The notes: generated by a model from the letters alone, not told the origin. 64,000 nucleotides of DNA from an uncultured Eubacteriales bacterium (GCA_900316025.1 ONBJ01000003.1:19642-83641), one strand, 5' to 3'. Shown: positions 11,977 through 19,371, numbered from the stretch's first letter. A program made the numbers and translations.

Positions 11977-14040
11977 GTGAAAGCATCAAAAAGAATTCCT
12001 GCAGTTTTTCTTGCAGCATTGTTAATAGCAGGAGCGGCAACTCCGGTATCGGCACAGACGGTTTCGGAAAATGCCACGGAAAAAAGCAGTGTATCACAGG
12101 TATCCGCTTTGAAGGATACTGAAAATAAAGTTTCAAAATCAGAAAATTCAGCAGCTTCTGTTTCTGAAAAGGCAACAGAGAGTATAACTGAAGGTGTTGA
12201 TTTGAGCAAAGACGATTCAGAAAAATCTGCCCCCGAACTTTCAAAGGGAATAAAGAATCAAACCATATCTTCAATATCAATTTCAAGTAAGAGTGTAGTT
12301 CTTGAAACCGCTCAGACAAAGCAGATGAGCGTTGAGATTACACCTTCAGATGTAAGACCTGACTGCATTGAATGGCAGAGTACGAATTCAGGTGTGGCAT
12401 CTGTGAGCAATACCGGAGTTGTTACTGCAAACGGAGCAGGTACATGTACCATAAAGGCGATTTCCATGGACGGAAGCAATAAGCTTTCATACTGTTCCGT
12501 AACGGTAACACAGAGGGTTGCCAATTTTGAAATTTCAGGCAGACCTGAAACTATCAAGGTCGGAGAAAAGGCAACTCTTTCCGCTATAGTCGCTCCTTCG
12601 TTCGCAACAAATAAGGTTCTTAAATGGAGCAGCAACAATCCTGATATTGCATCTGTTTCAACAAGAGGAATCGTTACGGCATTGAAAGAAGGTATTGCAA
12701 CAATTACAGCAGTTACTTCTGACGGAAGCAATATTTCAAAAAGCTTTAATCTTAAAGTAGAGCCTTCAACGGAAAAACCTATAAAACAGATTACTTCCAT
12801 AACGCTCAGTTCTATAAGAAAAGTAATAAATCAGGGTGATGATTTTCTCCTCAGCGGTTTAATTCAGCCTGCCGATGCGACAAATACATCACTTACATAT
12901 GTAAGCAGCAATACAAATGTTGCAGATGTTGATTCAAACGGAAGAGTTTACGGAAAATCAAAGGGTACATGTGTTATATATGTATCTTCAAATGACGGCA
13001 GCAAGATAAGAACAGGCTGTGTTGTTACGGTAGATAACAATGTTTTCAGCGTATCTATGGAAAAATCACTTAACTGTCTGAGAGGAAGAAGTGTACCGCT
13101 AAATCCCGTTATAACTCCCGCAGATGCAGATACTTCAAATGTAACATACAGAAGCAGCGACCTCAGTATTGCAACAGTTGACGGAAACGGTGTTATCAGA
13201 GGTATTTCAAACGGCAGTTGTACTATAAACTGTGTGTCAAGGGACGATCTTAAAATTTACGGAAGATGTCATGTTACGGTAACAGAGCCTGTAAGCCTTA
13301 TAAATATTCATGGTGACGGAATTGTTGCACCTAATGAAAGCATAGATCTTACAGCGACAGTATTTCCTTTAACAGCGACAAACAAGAATTTTATCTGGAG
13401 AAGCAGCGATGAAAGCGTTGCAAGAGTAGACCAGAAAGGCAGAGTTTACGGAGTTAAATCCGGAACGGTAATAATAAAATGTATCGCAATAGACGGTTCG
13501 GGTGTGTTCGGAACAAAGGAAATAACTGTTCGTGGAGGTGCAGCTTATGAGCTTGTTTCAGTTGCAAAGCAGCAAGCAGGAAACGGCCCTTCTGAGTACC
13601 GCAAATGGTTCTATGGCTATGATGCTGCCGATATACCTTGGTGTGCGATATTTGTTTCATGGTGTTTCAAACAGATTGACGGCATAAATCTCTACGCTGC
13701 AAAGACAGCAGGTGCAGGCTCTATAGCAAGAGAGAGTATAGCAATGGGACTTGAAGGTGACTGGTTCGAGAGTGAGTTTTCGGATTTAACTACCAAGCCG
13801 CAGGTCGGAGATGTAATAGAGTTTGTATGGAACTATAAGGGAAGATATTCCTCACAGGACAGATACTACAGTGACCATGTAGGTATAGTGTACGATGTTG
13901 ATGATGATTTTGTCTACACTGTAGAGGGTAATGCAGGCGGTGATGATAATGATACAAGTACCGTAAAGCTCAGATCATACAGCAGAAAGAGCGGTGCAAT
14001 AAACGGCTACTACAGACCCAGATGGGCTGACAATGTATAA
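11977..14040 (+). CDS. Secreted protein with five Big_2 Ig-like domains and a C-terminal CHAP peptidoglycan hydrolase domain
   Basis: Signal peptide; five W/Y-x-S-S-N...VA-x-V...G-x-V repeats; PWCAIFVSW, DHVGIV, TVEGN. Confidence 0.85.
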   Translation: MKASKRIPAVFLAALLIAGAATPVSAQTVSENATEKSSVSQVSALKDTENKVSKSENSAASVSEKATESITEGVDLSKDDSEKSAPELSKGIKNQTISSISISSKSVVLETAQTKQMSVEITPSDVRPDCIEWQSTNSGVASVSNTGVVTANGAGTCTIKAISMDGSNKLSYCSVTVTQRVANFEISGRPETIKVGEKATLSAIVAPSFATNKVLKWSSNNPDIASVSTRGIVTALKEGIATITAVTSDGSNISKSFNLKVEPSTEKPIKQITSITLSSIRKVINQGDDFLLSGLIQPADATNTSLTYVSSNTNVADVDSNGRVYGKSKGTCVIYVSSNDGSKIRTGCVVTVDNNVFSVSMEKSLNCLRGRSVPLNPVITPADADTSNVTYRSSDLSIATVDGNGVIRGISNGSCTINCVSRDDLKIYGRCHVTVTEPVSLINIHGDGIVAPNESIDLTATVFPLTATNKNFIWRSSDESVARVDQKGRVYGVKSGTVIIKCIAIDGSGVFGTKEITVRGGAAYELVSVAKQQAGNGPSEYRKWFYGYDAADIPWCAIFVSWCFKQIDGINLYAAKTAGAGSIARESIAMGLEGDWFESEFSDLTTKPQVGDVIEFVWNYKGRYSSQDRYYSDHVGIVYDVDDDFVYTVEGNAGGDDNDTSTVKLRSYSRKSGAINGYYRPRWADNV

Positions 14041-14065
14041 AATAATTTTCGTTCAGCTCATAACC

Positions 14066-14179
14066 GTGGGCGGAGATTGCAGACCACCGTCGGACTTGTC
14101 CGACGGTGCTTTTTTTGGCGATTAATCGCCAAAAAGTTGTCACAAGCCTTGCTTGTGACTGTCTGCAATCTCCGCCCAC
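14066..14179. repeat. Four-way-junction element B2
   Basis: 19-bp outer stem GTGGGCGGAGATTGCAGAC/GTCTGCAATCTCCGCCCAC; hairpins 14085-108, 14112-135, 14139-159. Confidence 0.9.
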
Positions 14180-14224
14180 TTTGTTTGTACTGAAAAACCA
14201 AAAATAAAATTACCAAAAAAGGTA

Positions 14225-14273
14225 TTGATATATTCCACTTGTGGAATTATAATATATTACACAAGTGGAATAT
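14225..14273 (+). promoter_or_regulatory. Promoter of padR operon with inverted-repeat operator
   Basis: TTGATA-17-TATAAT; ATATTCCACTTGTG (14230-43) and CACAAGTGGAATAT (14260-73) are perfect inverted repeats flanking the -10. Confidence 0.7.
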
Positions 14274-14298
14274 GTTGCTTAAAGGGAGTGAGAATTTT

Positions 14299-14859
14299 AT
14301 GTTGAAGCATGGTATACTTGGATTGCTGAACTACGGAAGTATGACAGGATATGATATTATGCTTACGTTCAGAAACTCACTGAATTATTTCTGGAATGCA
14401 CAGACCAGTCAGATATACAGGGAGCTGCAGACTCTGAAGAAAAACGGCTGGGTCAGCGATATGAGCATACATCAGGAAGGAAAGCCTGACAAGAATTTAT
14501 TTTCGATTACCGAAAGCGGTAAGAATGAGCTTAAAAGATGGCTTACCGAAGATGATACGGAATTCAGAATGAGAAATCCGCTGATGATGAAGATATTTTT
14601 CAGAGGTGAGCTGGGGATTGAAGAAAATATAGAATACTTTAAAAAGCTGCTCAATCAGTGTGATGATTTTATGAAGCTAATAGAAAAATCACCGTTTGAC
14701 GTAGATATGTATGAAGGAATGATAGAAAATCCTGAGAAAGCATTATACTGGAAAATGACAGTGGAATTTGGGTTTATGTATTCGCAGATATACAGAGAAT
14801 GGCTGGAAAAGTGCATAAAAGAAATGGAGGAGCTTATCAATGAAAATACTGCTGATTAA
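14299..14859 (+). CDS. PadR family transcriptional regulator
   Basis: ILGLLNYGSMTGYDI, QIYRELQTL, PDKNLFSITESGK; start moved to ATG 14299. Confidence 0.9.
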   Translation: MLKHGILGLLNYGSMTGYDIMLTFRNSLNYFWNAQTSQIYRELQTLKKNGWVSDMSIHQEGKPDKNLFSITESGKNELKRWLTEDDTEFRMRNPLMMKIFFRGELGIEENIEYFKKLLNQCDDFMKLIEKSPFDVDMYEGMIENPEKALYWKMTVEFGFMYSQIYREWLEKCIKEMEELINENTAD

Positions 14860-16453
14860 CGGAAGTCCCAAGGGAAAGAGAAGCAATACATATAAACTCG
14901 CACAGGCATTCAAGGAAGGAATTTCTGAAAAGACGGCTATAGAGTACGAGGAAATATGCGTAAAAGATAAGGAAATAAAGACCTGCTCGGGCTGTTTTTC
15001 GTGCTGGAACAAGACACCAGGAAAATGTGTTGTAAATGATGATATGGAAGAAATTCTTGAAAAGATTTTATGGGCGGATACGGTTATATGGTCATTCGGA
15101 CTTTATTATTTCAATGTACCGGGAAAGCTTAAAATGCTGATAGACAGACAGCTTCCGCTCTCTATGCCTTTTATGGTAAAGGACAGTGAAAGCGGAGGAC
15201 ACAGCTCAAGATATGATATGTCGGGCAAGAGAAACGTTGTAATATCGACCTGCGGTTTTTATACGGCAAAGGGTAATTACGATTCTGTAGATGATATGTT
15301 CAGTCATTTTTGCGGAAAAGACGGCTACGATAAAATATACTGCGGTCAGGGAGAGCTTTTCAGAGTTCCCGAACTTAAAGGAAGAACGGAAGAATATCTT
15401 AACGATGTAAGGTGTGCTGGAAGAGAGTTTGCACAGGGAAAAATATCCGCAGAAACTTCAAAAAGACTTGAAGCCTTGCTGTTCCCGAAAGAAGTATTTG
15501 AAAGTATGGCAGACGCAAGCTGGGGAATAGAGGAAAAGACAGGTATAAAAAGTGACGAAGCCTTTACTTTTACAAAGCAGATGGCGGCACTGTATAACAA
15601 AAATTCATACAGCGGCAAGGATATAGTACTGGAAATGTTCTACACGGATGAGGAAAAAAGGTATCAGATAATTCTTGGAAAAGACGGAAGTAATGTTATA
15701 AAGGAAAATTTCCGTGAATACACAACAAAGATAGAAACTCCATTATCGGTATGGAAAGATATTGCACAGGGTAAAATATCGGGAACTCAGGCATTGATGG
15801 AAAAAAAGTACCGTGTTTCGGGAGATTTTGACATTATGATTAACTGGGAGAAATACTTCGGATACGAAAGCGGCAGTTCAGACGAAAATCGTACACAAAT
15901 TTCGCATAAAGGCGAAAAGAAAAGCAATATGCTTGTTATGCTGTTTCCCTGGATAGTGTTCTGGGTTGCGGTATCTATAGAAAGCTATGTGGGAGCATTA
16001 ATATCGGTTGCAGCGTGTGGAATCCTCAATGTTATTTTTTTCAGAAACAGAAAAACAGTATATGACGTTATATCATATGCGGCGGTAATAATTTTGTCGG
16101 TACTTGTTTTATGGTTGGGAAATGTTTCCGTTATACTGCCTGTATCATATCTTTTGTTCGGTCTTATGTGGAGCGTATCCTGTATTACTAAAATTCCGCT
16201 TACTGCACACTACTCTATGAATGATTACGGCGAAGACAAAGCATTTGAAAATCCGCTTTTTGTAAGAACAAATCTTATACTTACTCTTGCATGGGGAATA
16301 CTGTATATAGCTACAAGTATATGGACATTCTTTTTAATGTCATCACCCATAGCACCGTACATATCTCTGATAAACAATATTTGTCCTATTGTAATGGGTG
16401 TGTTTACAGTATGGTTTCAGCGTTGGTATCCTGCACATTATGCCTCTAAATGA
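14840..16453 (+). CDS. Fusion: iron-sulfur flavoprotein/flavodoxin-like domain + SCP2 lipid-binding domain + multi-TM C-terminus
   Basis: INGSPKG..SNT FMN loop, CSGCFSCWNKTPGKC motif; SCP2-like WKDIAQGKISGTQALMEKKYRVSGD; about 5-6 hydrophobic helices at the end. Confidence 0.75.
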   Translation: MKILLINGSPKGKRSNTYKLAQAFKEGISEKTAIEYEEICVKDKEIKTCSGCFSCWNKTPGKCVVNDDMEEILEKILWADTVIWSFGLYYFNVPGKLKMLIDRQLPLSMPFMVKDSESGGHSSRYDMSGKRNVVISTCGFYTAKGNYDSVDDMFSHFCGKDGYDKIYCGQGELFRVPELKGRTEEYLNDVRCAGREFAQGKISAETSKRLEALLFPKEVFESMADASWGIEEKTGIKSDEAFTFTKQMAALYNKNSYSGKDIVLEMFYTDEEKRYQIILGKDGSNVIKENFREYTTKIETPLSVWKDIAQGKISGTQALMEKKYRVSGDFDIMINWEKYFGYESGSSDENRTQISHKGEKKSNMLVMLFPWIVFWVAVSIESYVGALISVAACGILNVIFFRNRKTVYDVISYAAVIILSVLVLWLGNVSVILPVSYLLFGLMWSVSCITKIPLTAHYSMNDYGEDKAFENPLFVRTNLILTLAWGILYIATSIWTFFLMSSPIAPYISLINNICPIVMGVFTVWFQRWYPAHYASK

Positions 16454-16458
16454 AGAGT

Positions 16459-16545
16459 TTAAGGGTTTCACCCTTAAAAATCCTGACCAAAGGCTCCGCC
16501 TTTGGAAACCGCAAGCCTTTGAAAAGGCTTGACCTAAACTTTATG
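16459..16545 (-). repeat. Repeat family A, copy A2
   Basis: Reverse complement of A1 with one substitution; starts 6 nt after the upstream stop codon. Confidence 0.95.
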
Positions 16546-16613
16546 TTGTCTGATTATTGTTTTTGTGAGTGTACTTATAAATGTTTTTATAGATACACTC
16601 TGTTTTTTGCCTT

Positions 16614-16643
16614 GTATATTTTTCTGATTTCAAGACAAAACTA
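16614..16643 (+). promoter_or_regulatory. Possible SigF (forespore) promoter
   Basis: GTATA-15-GACAAAACTA, one mismatch to B. subtilis SigF consensus GYATA-N15-GGnnAnAHTR. Confidence 0.35.
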
Positions 16644-16676
16644 TCCGTATAAAGATAAATAAATGCGGAGGTCAAA

Positions 16677-17426
16677 ATGAATAACAGAGAACTGGAATAT
16701 GAGCTTACCGAACAGGAACAGCTTAATAAAGTAAAATATACAAAAGGGTTTTATGCGGTATTTGCACTTTGTGTCTGTGCCATAGGAATTGCAGGCTGGT
16801 ATACCTACGCGGACGTAAAAAACTATATGCACCATAACGAATCCCCTGAAATTTCCATAACCGCAAGCGAACCCGTAAATGAACAGGCTGAGGTTAAACT
16901 GTCTGGAATTGAAAAAAATACTACAGAAAATGAAGATGTAAGCGACAATGCGGAAGAAGAAGTTCCGCAGGAAACTCCTACTGTGATAAGTGAGCCTGTT
17001 CGCAGTCAGAGAGTTTGTCCTACAGGTGAAAATAAAAAAATACTTTCGGAATACTCAATGAACAATATGGTATATTTTGAAACCCTGAAGGACTGGCGGC
17101 TTCACAAGGGAACTGATTATGCAGCGGCTCAGGGAGAAGAAGTATTTTCAATATCAGACGGTATTGTTTCGGCTGTCATAAAAAACGAGCTGTACGGTGA
17201 AGGCGTGGAGCTTGAATATAAAAACGGCTTCAAGGCGACATATTACGGTATAAAGCCTGACAGCAATATATCCTTAGGTACACGTATTAAAGCAGGCGAC
17301 GTTGTAGGTACGGTAACGGAAGTACCCTGCGAAAAGAGTTTGCAGTCCCATATTCATCTTGAAATGACTAAGGACAATCAGTACGTAAACCCCGAAACGT
17401 ATCTCAATAATACTGATAATCCCTGA
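16677..17426 (+). CDS. M23 peptidase with N-terminal TM anchor (SpoIIQ-like)
   Basis: One TM, acidic linker, WRLHKGTDY (HxxxD) and HIHLE (HxH) motifs. Confidence 0.75.
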   Translation: MNNRELEYELTEQEQLNKVKYTKGFYAVFALCVCAIGIAGWYTYADVKNYMHHNESPEISITASEPVNEQAEVKLSGIEKNTTENEDVSDNAEEEVPQETPTVISEPVRSQRVCPTGENKKILSEYSMNNMVYFETLKDWRLHKGTDYAAAQGEEVFSISDGIVSAVIKNELYGEGVELEYKNGFKATYYGIKPDSNISLGTRIKAGDVVGTVTEVPCEKSLQSHIHLEMTKDNQYVNPETYLNNTDNP

Positions 17427-17444
17427 TAATTACTACAGAAAAAT

Positions 17445-17530
17445 CATAAAGTTTAGGTCAAGCCTTTTCAAAGGCTTGCGGTTTCCAAAGGCGGAGCCTT
17501 TGGTGGGATTTTCAAGGGCAAAGCCCTTGA
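17445..17530 (+). repeat. Repeat family A, copy A3
   Basis: Identical to A1 over first ~60 bp; third hairpin is the variant TCAAGGGC-AAA-GCCCTTGA. Confidence 0.95.
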
Positions 17531-17535
17531 ACTCA

Positions 17536-17579
17536 AAACCCCATCACTGCTGAAAATAAATTCAGCAGTGATGGGGTTT
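17536..17579. terminator. 19-bp stem between convergent M23 and recX genes
   Basis: AAACCCCATCACTGCTGAA-AATAAA-TTCAGCAGTGATGGGGTTT. Confidence 0.7.
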
Positions 17580-17591
17580 GCTTGAGAAAAT

Positions 17592-18200
17592 TTATAAAAA
17601 ACTGTTTTCTTCCTGAATAGCGTTTTTAATATCGCTCCAGCTCCAGCCAAGTCTTTGCAGGGCTGCTATAGCTCTTTTCTTTACCTTTTCGTCATGTGCA
17701 TAGGTCGGATATTTCTTTGCAAGAACCTGCTGTATCTCGGATACAGGGTCAAATTCAAGATCTTCCTTGATAATCTCTATTATTTCAGGCGAAATTCCCT
17801 TTTCACGAAGCCTGAACTCTATTCCTCTGAGCGACATATGTTTTTTTCGTAAAAGCTCATCTGCATATTTACGTGCATATTCCTCATCGTTGACAAGTCC
17901 TGATTCCTGCATTTTTTCGGCGATTTCCTCTGCCGTTTCAGCGGAATAAGTCCTGCTGAGTTTTTCTTTAAGTTCTTTTTTAGAGTGGTCACGGTATGTG
18001 ATAAGGTTAAGAGCTTTTTCGTTTGCACGCTGTTTTTCAGACTGCTGTATCAGACTATGAAGTTCTTCGTCCGAAATTTCCACACCAGCTTTTATATGGT
18101 TCTTAATCAGCGTCATATTATCAAGAGTTACAGCATATTCACCGTCTATATAAACGGCACTCATAGACCTTTTCCAAGGCTCAACCGAACTTATGAGCAT
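17592..18200 (-). CDS. recX: Regulatory protein RecX
   Basis: ALNLITYRDHSKKEL, GLVNDEEYA, LQRLGWS; directly after recA. Confidence 0.9.
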   Translation of the reverse strand: MLISSVEPWKRSMSAVYIDGEYAVTLDNMTLIKNHIKAGVEISDEELHSLIQQSEKQRANEKALNLITYRDHSKKELKEKLSRTYSAETAEEIAEKMQESGLVNDEEYARKYADELLRKKHMSLRGIEFRLREKGISPEIIEIIKEDLEFDPVSEIQQVLAKKYPTYAHDEKVKKRAIAALQRLGWSWSDIKNAIQEENSFL

Positions 18201-18204
18201 ATTA

Positions 18205-19371
18205 TCAGTCCTCTACCATAATATCTATGTCCTTTGTATCAACAGCAGGTGCCTTAACATCGTCAATATCTATAACAGTTTCTTTCTTAGATGATAAACC
18301 GCCGTCTTTGGCAGCTTTGGAAAGTGAAGAACCGTTTTCCTCGTCAATAGCTTCAAGAACCTTCTGTTCAACTTCCTGAGCAAGCTCCTGATTTTCCATA
18401 AGAAGCTTCTTGATATTATCTCTGCCCTGACCAAGACGCTCTGCACCGTAGGAGAACCATGCACCGCTTTTGTGAATAATATCTCTTTCAACTGCAAGGT
18501 CGAGCAGTTCGCCTGTTCTTGATATGCCTTTGCCGTACATAATATCAAAGTGAGCTTCCTTGAAAGGCGGTGCTATCTTGTTTTTTACAACCTTTGCCTT
18601 TGTTCGTGAGCCGATTATCTCAGTACCGTTTTTGATAGCTTCTTCTTTTCTTACCTCAATTCTTACAGAGGAATAGTATTTCAAAGCACGTCCGCCTGTA
18701 GTTACTTCGGGATTTCCGTATACAACTCCTACTTTTTCTCTGAGCTGATTTATAAATATAGCAACGCAGTTTGACTTTGAAATAGCACCTGCAAGCTTTC
18801 TGAGAGCCTGCGACATAAGTCTTGCGTGCAGACCTACGTGTGAATCACCCATATCGCCGTCAATTTCAGCCTTAGGCACGAGAGCCGCAACGGAGTCCAC
18901 AACTATTACATCAATAGCACCTGAACGTATGAGAGCTTCCGCAATTTCGAGAGCCTGTTCACCAGTATCAGGCTGAGAAACGAGCAAATCGTCAACATTT
19001 ACACCGAGAGCCTTTGCATATACAGGGTCGAGAGCGTGTTCAACATCTATAAAAGCAACGTTTCCGCCCATTTTCTGACCCTCTGCTATACAGTGAAGTG
19101 CAAGTGTGGTTTTTCCTGATGACTCAGGGCCGTATATTTCGATAATTCTTCCCTTAGGCAGACCGCCTATGCCGAGAGCAAGGTCGAGAGTAAGCGAGCC
19201 TGTAGGAACACAGCCTACGTTCATAGCCTGATTTTGTCCCAGACGCATAACCGCACCCTTACCAAACTGCTTTTCAATCTGGCTTATGGCGGTTTCCAGA
19301 GCCTTTGCTCTTTCTTCCGAGCTTTGGTTCAGTTTTATTTTCAAGTCTTTTGCTTTTGATTCCTTAGCCAT
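18205..19371 (-). CDS. recA: Recombinase A
   Basis: [33 protein letters not shown]. Confidence 0.99.

Follow-up and report, generated by a model that had tools for sequence, protein, structure and literature searches.

The best described relatives of the enzyme considered here are soluble reductases with a flavodoxin-like fold. FLR of Flavonifractor plautii (PDB 7D38-7D3B, 'Cd1') is a protein of 310 amino acids that was solved as a dimer with its flavin at the interface, and in which a beta-subdomain and a bent-helix tail form the flavone pocket, the tail being essential for activity (PMC7862272). Isf of Methanosarcina thermophila and the other members of its family are small proteins with an FMN_red-type fold and a compact motif near residue 50, CX2CX2CX5-7C, that ligates a [4Fe-4S] cluster (PMC3164229). 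AzoR, NQO1/NQO2 and MdaB (Pfam Flavodoxin_2), in turn, act on hydrophobic quinones and dyes. The locus we describe lies at positions 14,225 to 16,453 of a 64,000-nucleotide stretch of DNA from an uncultured Eubacteriales bacterium (GCA_900316025.1 ONBJ01000003.1:19642-83641), the whole of which we call the window, and consists of padR, a gene for a PadR-family regulator, and an overlapping gene for an enzyme in which an Isf/FLR-type reductase core is followed by an SCP2 lipid-binding domain, a flexible tether and a six-helix membrane domain (Table 1).

What would a reductase of this kind do with a lipid-binding domain, a membrane domain and a regulator of its own? The reading we favor, to which we give a probability of roughly 0.5, is that the enzyme is a ligand-derepressed, membrane-anchored Isf/FLR-type iron-sulfur (Fe-S) flavoprotein which reduces a membrane-partitioned lipophile with the aid of a YciB/VC0807-like module and an accessory SCP2 domain. 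PadR dimers bound to two palindromic operators that bracket the -10 element would repress their own bicistronic, translationally coupled transcript, until a hydrophobic or phenolic ligand presumably frees the promoter. The enzyme would work as a homodimer at the cytoplasmic face of the membrane, with electrons moving between the [4Fe-4S] cluster and flavin mononucleotide (FMN) at the dimer interface and then to a lipophilic, membrane-partitioning acceptor, candidates for which are enones, quinones or polyphenols of plants, and acyl chains that are unsaturated or oxidized. Its physiological donor would probably be not NAD(P)H alone but a low-potential carrier, such as ferredoxin, acting via the cluster. 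The membrane domain would give access to the bilayer and may recognize the substrate, and the tethered SCP2 domain would help as a carrier by bringing the lipophile up to the flavin. Unsaturated or oxidized fatty acids, plant quinones or polyphenols, and peroxides are candidate substrate classes. A first-pass annotation of the window had suggested a reductase or detoxifier of bile acids, sterols, fatty acids or quinones; a reductase of hydrophobic substrates is a sensible reading, backed by the domain swap and the split operons described below, but its extension to sterols and bile acids found no support.

The reductase module matches Pfam Flavodoxin_2 (1.3e-19) and FMN_red (7.2e-19), and its cysteines C49, C52, C55 and C63 are conserved without exception in alignments of 41 and 27 sequences, down to 25% identity, which bears out the flavodoxin-like domain with a Cx2Cx2Cx7C motif that had been noticed at first. 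An AlphaFold2 model of the enzyme, built on a 41-sequence alignment, has a mean predicted local distance difference test (pLDDT) of 90.5 and a predicted template modeling score (pTM) of 0.78. With residues 1-230, Foldseek retrieved FMN-dependent quinone/azo reductases of the AzoR/NQO type (3keg, 4n9q and others, including NQO2 and indigo reductase) at E values near 1e-8, with TM-scores by target of 0.63-0.72 and sequence identities of 14-23%. These are the best structural matches to the module, and they have the dimer mode in common with it; they are, however, soluble proteins that lack the Fe-S motif, and the enzyme is far under the cut-offs of the NCBIfam models for AzoR/NQO-type reductases (14 bits vs 162). 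When two copies of residues 1-345 were modeled together the dimer score was 0.73, relative to 0.00 for the best control. Of 30 proteins solved as pairs of one chain 20 attained this value, as did one of 23 solved as single chains; since the alignment used was our own, these counts hold only roughly. The runs agreed in at least 94% of contacts, with a pLDDT of the partner of at least 84, and the modeled interface comprises the flavin loops 89-105 and 140-157 together with residues 48-51 beside the cysteine motif, so that the predicted fold places the flavin site at the dimer interface. It may be that the high score reflects likeness to the solved dimers of AzoR, NQO and FLR.

The compact cysteine motif, the FMN_red-type fold and a restriction to anaerobes are shared with Isf, and the enzyme is best regarded as an Isf-like flavodoxin-fold reductase whose motif, by analogy, would bind a [4Fe-4S] cluster, in line with the Fe-S flavoprotein of the first-pass annotation. 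Isf, unlike the enzyme, has neither a lipid-binding nor a membrane domain. Could the enzyme nevertheless serve in oxidative stress as Isf does, so that, at the surface of the membrane in a strict anaerobe, electrons from ferredoxin would reduce O2, H2O2 or lipid hydroperoxides? The type of motif and fold would suit such a role, SCP2 could present peroxidized lipids, and Isf genes are among those most strongly induced in Entamoeba under oxidative and nitrosative stress (PMC3164229). However, the reduction of O2 and H2O2 is known as a feature of Isf and not of the present family, and none of the 57 PDB matches of the family profile at E values up to 0.01 is a chain named Isf (other names were not looked up), whereas FLR and quinone/azo reductases are found there. 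A patchy, mobile distribution would also be unusual for a core oxygen defense, and PadR regulators are not known to be redox sensors. We regard this explanation as highly unlikely.

Similarity to FLR is closer at the level of sequence: it is the best solved relative of the family profile (7d38, 2.3e-15), over positions 1-106, which span the phosphate loop and the cysteine motif. Both proteins come from anaerobic gut Clostridia and have in common the flavodoxin-like FMN domain, the N-terminal phosphate loop and the placement of the motif (C-x2-C-x2-C-xn-C), although the last spacing is x7 in the enzyme and x11 in FLR. FLR is unable to use NADH directly in vitro and was fed by an auxiliary flavin reductase, its native electron chain being called unknown by the authors (PMC7862272), and this behavior is consistent with, but no proof of, a low-potential donor acting through a cluster.

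The FLR relationship invites the idea that the enzyme is a membrane-bound analogue of FLR, i.e., an ene-reductase for flavonoids or polyphenols whose expression plant phenolics would induce by way of PadR. In its favor, the nearest solved PadR senses phenolic acids and the hosts, going by the names of homologues, live in plant-fiber-rich gut or rumen. Against it, the similarity ends at residue 106; a second FLR-aligned stretch is not significant (score -2.0), leaving the essential C-terminal tail of FLR unmatched, and in place of the flavone pocket the enzyme has SCP2, the tether and the six-helix domain. None of the loci examined has linked steroid, bile-acid or flavonoid-pathway genes. In particular, genes for chalcone isomerase, Fcr and phloretin hydrolase are not linked to the enzyme gene, in contrast to the situation in the flr clusters (C. 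butyricum and C. ljungdahlii). As a flavonoid reductase would also have no evident need of a carrier for lipids or of a polytopic membrane domain, we think this proposal quite unlikely.

The middle domain is a true SCP2 domain. Against a cut-off of 21.3 bits for Pfam SCP2 (PF02036), the whole protein has a score of 24.1 and the segment by itself one of 27.4, with homologues of the enzyme reaching 99.7 bits, and a profile of the segment (A4) matches SCP2-fold chains exclusively, at E values from 1.1e-7 to 5e-6: archaeal AF_1534 (3cnu, 1.1e-7), 3bn8, human SCP2 (2c0l, 5e-6), rabbit SCP2, C-terminal domains of alkylsulfatases, and MFE-2. Foldseek matched the domain to the SdsA1 chain 2cfu, and the order of elements predicted for residues 240-340 (helices, four strands, helices, strand, helix) is that of the SCP2 fold, so that the check for a fold other than SCP2 came out negative. 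Does such a domain make the substrate a sterol or a bile acid? The name of the domain and the gut setting are the sole support for a reductase that modifies either. SCP2 domains bind many lipids and also occur in alkylsulfatases and MFE-2, no steroid-pathway or bile-acid gene was linked in the roughly 20 loci examined, there are natural split variants of the unit that lack SCP2, and the family is also carried by Acetobacterium species, which are not known to be gut bile-acid converters. A sterol or bile-acid substrate therefore seems extremely improbable. The only other gene for an SCP2 domain in the host genome (contig C57:3113-3364; L013:1486-1815, minus strand) encodes a stand-alone protein of 109 amino acids (42.3 bits) and adjoins genes for a polytopic membrane protein of 196 amino acids and an uncharacterized protein of 405.

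The membrane domain has six transmembrane (TM) helices by both hydropathy and AlphaFold2 (pLDDT 95.3), where about five or six had been estimated, and, in addition, two short interfacial helices in which the conserved motif PLTAxYS...NPLFxxTN is found. By the positive-inside rule this motif and both ends of the domain should be cytoplasmic. W375, W444, Y458, N478 and W485 are invariant, and no conserved cluster of His, Asp or Glu residues suggestive of a metal site was found in the alignment. Pfam and NCBIfam gave no direct match, and a search of the Atlas by fold returned the domain's own family clusters alone. An exhaustive structure search of 48,161 PDB representatives gave no fold assignment, as the best hit (TMEM45A, Z 7.4) is at the level of helical-bundle noise. 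Comparison of profiles was more informative: by hhalign the domain aligned over its whole length (172 columns) with VC0807-family proteins, at a probability of 88.5% and an E value of 2.7e-6 with a profile of three sequences, and a language-model look-up led independently to DUF3159/IspA clusters (feature-based score 0.86-0.90). The VC0807 proteins themselves, from genome G200 and C. butyricum, match Pfam IspA (YciB) and DUF3159 weakly. A distant relation to membrane proteins of the VC0807/YciB type (YciB is also known as IspZ) is thus probable, and it would be a remote one; YciB is usually described with five TM helices, relative to the six plus two interfacial helices here. In Escherichia coli YciB has been linked to the upkeep of membrane fluidity (PMC9487459).

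Is the membrane domain anything other than an anchor? Architectural variants suggest that it is a partner of the reductase. In the variant P0231 (697 amino acids, on a 78-kb contig) an FNR-type module for flavin adenine dinucleotide (FAD) and NAD and a 2Fe-2S ferredoxin domain replace the flavodoxin ahead of the same SCP2 and TM module, from which it follows that this module would be the electron-accepting or substrate-presenting end and could be served by different reductases. A second kind of variant is the split operon. In L059, PadR, a flavodoxin of 220 amino acids and a TM protein of 171 amino acids, of the same family as the membrane domain, are encoded by separate genes and SCP2 is absent, which makes SCP2 an accessory, dispensable in natural variants, and the pairing of reductase and TM protein the core. 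An operon in G200 (L055:59-3550) consists of padR, the gene for an Fe-S flavodoxin that aligns with the profile of the N-terminal domain at an hhalign probability of 100%, and the gene for a VC0807-family membrane protein, with a gene for a major facilitator superfamily transporter after them, and the flavodoxin-VC0807 gene pair is found again in pCBU1 of C. butyricum (L054). VC0807 genes thus directly follow an orthologous Fe-S flavodoxin gene, once with padR too, and they are rare in Clostridia, being present in two of 250 sampled genomes. It is the split operons, taken with the invariant W, Y and N residues, that argue for partnership. The P0231 operon (L015:2818-7094) also encodes a TetR regulator and an FAD oxidoreductase of the CrtI/phytoene-desaturase family, and may be a separate redox system for lipophiles. 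The short forms P0173 ('SCP2+TM') and P0263 ('TM-only') lie at the ends of contigs and, being probably fragments, were set aside, the true splits having come from long contigs, and L058 is either a frameshift or a true split.

Further variants have lipid enzymes as fusion partners or neighbors. In P0272 the flavodoxin module is fused to a GDSL lipase, and on a megaplasmid of Lachnospira eligens ATCC 27750 (L053; NC_012780.1, 270226-278924) an Fe-S flavodoxin of the family lies in an acyl-lipid cluster beside capsule genes, in the order lysophospholipid acyltransferase, adenylate-forming enzyme, acyl carrier protein (ACP), patatin, flavodoxin, SGNH/GDSL hydrolase and acyltransferase. Together with the redox swap, the split operons and the VC0807 partners, these contexts point to a lipid or other lipophile as substrate. 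A respiratory quinone, which the first-pass annotation would have allowed, is not a good candidate: the host genome (100% complete) has no match to a UbiA/MenA prenyltransferase or to cytochrome bd, making an endogenous quinone unlikely, and a role as respiratory quinone reductase was rejected for this host.

Could the lipophile be an unsaturated fatty acid, with the enzyme hydrogenating C=C bonds, conjugated or activated, in free fatty acids that have entered the membrane, as a defense against toxic dietary polyunsaturates that would also be the inducers of PadR? The SCP2 and YciB-like domains are lipid-related, N-domain homologues are found fused to the GDSL lipase and in the patatin, ACP and acyltransferase context, and FLR, the nearest characterized relative, is itself a C=C ene-reductase. 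Unsaturated fatty acids are toxic to rumen Clostridia (PMC2836310), and the classical Butyrivibrio reductase is membrane-associated and did not come up in KEGG, COG or Pfam searches (PMC4478896). The last point cuts both ways, in that a reductase reported to be outside Pfam is probably a different protein from an enzyme with clear Pfam domains, and it argues against identity with the Butyrivibrio conjugated linoleic acid reductase (Fukuda 2007). In addition, no locus of the full-length form has a linked gene for handling acyl-CoA or acyl-ACP, and the MCRA fatty-acid hydratase was not found in the host genome, so that a part as the enone reductase of a Lactobacillus-type saturation pathway was unsupported as well. 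We consider a fatty-acid reductase of this description unlikely. A broader version, in which the [4Fe-4S]/FMN reductase is fed bilayer-embedded substrates by a protein of the YciB/VC0807 type and directly hydrogenates or repairs unsaturated or oxidized acyl chains, or acts on some other membrane-dissolved electrophile, within the membrane of quinone-free anaerobes, would amount to a membrane-lipid redox system not recognized before and is decidedly doubtful. If it were true it would provide the first biochemical role for YciB/VC0807/DUF3159, as a substrate-access module for reductases, and could supply a gene for a membrane-bound activity of the biohydrogenation type in Clostridia of the rumen and gut.

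Control of the favored lipophile reductase by PadR is suggested by the promoter. The perfect 14-bp inverted repeat around the -10 element that had been reported (ATATTCCACTTGTG at 14230-14243 and CACAAGTGGAATAT at 14260-14273) is real, and is better described as two copies of a 16-bp palindrome, ATTCCAC-WW-GTGGAAT, one on each side of the -10 element. In a scan of the complete 2.08-Mb host assembly, sites with no or one mismatch were confined to the padR promoter, O1 being the sole perfect site, and the five sites with two mismatches elsewhere (one with a reversed-pattern control) include no good palindrome. The palindrome is found at the equivalent position, between -35 and -10, in eight related loci. 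The spacer operator is perfect in L005, L012 and L019, has one mismatch in L010 and L021, where there is also a weaker second site, and is a weaker variant in L002, while in L001 (ATTCTAT..GTAGAAT) both arms have shifted toward ATTCTAY with six of seven arm positions palindromic. Loci without padR (L011, L020) have no such site at the promoter, and in L012, in which padR is downstream of the enzyme gene, the operator is nonetheless at the promoter of the operon. That the site is unique in the genome and recurs at the same promoter position in related loci excludes chance and, judged from these sequences, makes it an operator dedicated to the padR-enzyme unit; its co-occurrence with padR supports the PadR-repressed operon that had been proposed.

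PadR itself belongs to the two-domain PadR/AphA subfamily, having a winged helix (Pfam PadR, 2.4e-13) and a Vir_act_alpha_C dimerization domain (1e-11) in a protein of the usual length, about 180 amino acids. Its nearest solved relatives are B. subtilis PadR (5x11, 5.8e-19), which is a phenolic-acid sensor, and AphA (1yg2), the second-best value being 8.2e-18. Like these regulators it appears to act locally and to repress itself by way of a palindrome that overlies its promoter, and family behavior suggests that it represses and is released by a ligand. It differs in its target, which is a membrane reductase and not a phenolic acid decarboxylase, and in its operator, that of B. subtilis PadR being ATGT-N8-ACAT. 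padR adjoins the enzyme gene in nine of 11 close orthologue loci with readable flanks, a count that includes the window and one locus listed without its DNA. In a distant Acetobacterium clade (30-36% identity), by comparison, there is no adjacent padR and the neighbors are a threonine-dehydratase-like gene and DUF362, which makes PadR control a trait of the mobile clade and not of the whole enzyme family.

The family is large. Full-length relatives of the enzyme numbered more than 3,000 in a word-seeded search, and an exhaustive one gave 6,378 cluster representatives at E <1e-3; the sources call them only 'NAD(P)H-dependent oxidoreductase', 'flavodoxin family protein' and 'multimeric flavodoxin WrbA/putative sterol carrier protein'. 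It is also patchy: the enzyme is present in three of 18 genomes of the host genus and in 12 of 399 sampled genomes of the class. The nearest relative carries the enzyme gene on one contig and the counterparts of its flanking genes in the window on another, and at other loci the neighbors of the gene include Fic, resolvase, toxin-antitoxin, restriction and Mob genes, with padR the only conserved neighbor. A patchy presence, changing position and neighbors of this kind indicate that the padR-enzyme unit behaves as a mobile accessory unit and not as part of a pathway. In PLSDB no full-length copies were found, only stand-alone relatives of the N-terminal domain, on megaplasmids. Does this make it a self-contained, horizontally mobile, ligand-inducible unit for stress or detoxification? 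We are evenly divided on that description.

Several observations weigh against the favored account. Fe-S clusters and cysteines are nowhere discussed in the text of the FLR paper (PMC7862272), which leaves the analogy with Isf as the ground for proposing cluster binding in this clade. A flexible tether of 15 residues, which is unconserved and has many insertions and deletions in alignment A1, would also fit a TM domain that is mainly an anchor, the structure search yielded no solved relative of that domain, and the hhalign probability for VC0807 homology, with so small a profile, is only 88.5%. Each clue from a lipid context is a single locus or protein. The lack of padR in the Acetobacterium clade implies that inducible detoxification may not be the ancestral role, and our literature search found no paper on a family that combines Fe-S flavodoxin, SCP2 and TM domains.

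Why does a two-gene unit merit this attention? The three-part enzyme is found in thousands of genomes from gut, rumen and acetogens under generic labels, and FLR, its only characterized relative, altered the understanding of how flavonoids are broken down in the gut. Where such a reductase is bound to the membrane and comes with a carrier for lipids and a dedicated repressor that senses a ligand, this is probably the sign of a distinct conversion of a lipophile derived from the diet or from membranes, one that could alter the exposure of the host to plant compounds or fatty acids. The unit is small, comprising two genes and a defined operator of 16 bp, so that its repressor could be used as a biosensor for its inducer, making the question of the substrate directly testable. 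The recurrent pairing with VC0807/YciB-like proteins is a first functional handle on that unexplained superfamily and, along with the operator analysis, the swap of redox modules and the split operons, is new here.

Table 1. Features of the padR-enzyme unit, in window coordinates.
Feature	Positions	Strand	Basis or remarks
Sigma-70-type promoter, TTGATA (14225) / 17-nucleotide spacer / TATAAT (14248-14253)	14225..14253	+	11/12 matches
Operator O1, perfect palindrome ATTCCACTTGTGGAAT	14232..14247		Fills the -35/-10 spacer
Operator O2, ATTACACAAGTGGAAT, one mismatch	14256..14271		Immediately downstream of -10
padR	14299..14859	+	186 amino acids; two-domain PadR-family regulator (winged helix and AphA-type C-terminal domain)
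Enzyme gene	14840..16453	+	537 amino acids
FMN-binding flavodoxin-like reductase core with helical cap, residues 1-235	14840..15544	+	Pfam, Foldseek, family profile
Cysteine motif C49-x2-C52-x2-C55-x7-C63, presumed [4Fe-4S] site	14984..15028	+	Invariant in alignments A1 and A3
SCP2 lipid-binding domain, residues 236-342	15545..15865	+	Pfam, profile, Foldseek
Disordered tether of variable length, residues 343-357	15866..15910	+	Sole segment with pLDDT <50
Six-helix membrane domain with two short interfacial helices, residues 358-537 and stop codon	15911..16453	+	Hydropathy, AlphaFold2

The promoter listed in Table 1 is the top-scoring promoter-like site within 13950-16750, and its layout recurs in L005, L010, L012, L019 and L021. 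padR begins with ATG preceded by AAGGGAG, and its overlap with the enzyme gene (14840-14859) is exactly the 20 nucleotides that had been counted before; as the ribosome-binding site of the enzyme gene, GGAGGAG, is within the 3' end of padR, the two genes are likely to be translationally coupled in one operon. A scan of 13900-16750 against Rfam found no RNA families.

The gene upstream of the padR promoter, which encodes a secreted repeat protein of 687 amino acids (11977-14040), has its own terminator, a hairpin and T-run at 14085-14108. Between this gene and the promoter is a nested inverted repeat of 114 nucleotides (14066-14179), in which three hairpins are closed by an outer stem of 19 bp; it has no Rfam match and is dispersed, with about eight more full or partial copies on other host contigs (e.g., C88:5461-5565, 73% identity over 110 nucleotides). 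Directly 3' of the enzyme stop codon three tandem hairpins (16454-16545) belong to a second small repeat family, copies of which follow the next gene in the window (17445-17538) and are found in other genomes of the genus (L042, L044 and L048; 82-96% identity), so that the operon has a dispersed intergenic repeat on either side. It is only from 16612 onward that the window is again syntenic with the nearest relative. Downstream (16677-19371) are a gene for a protein of 249 amino acids that is conserved throughout the genus and, on the minus strand, genes for proteins of 202 and 388 amino acids which, by eye only, we take to be recX and recA. Flanking genes of this kind suggest that the padR-enzyme unit was inserted into core-genome surroundings.

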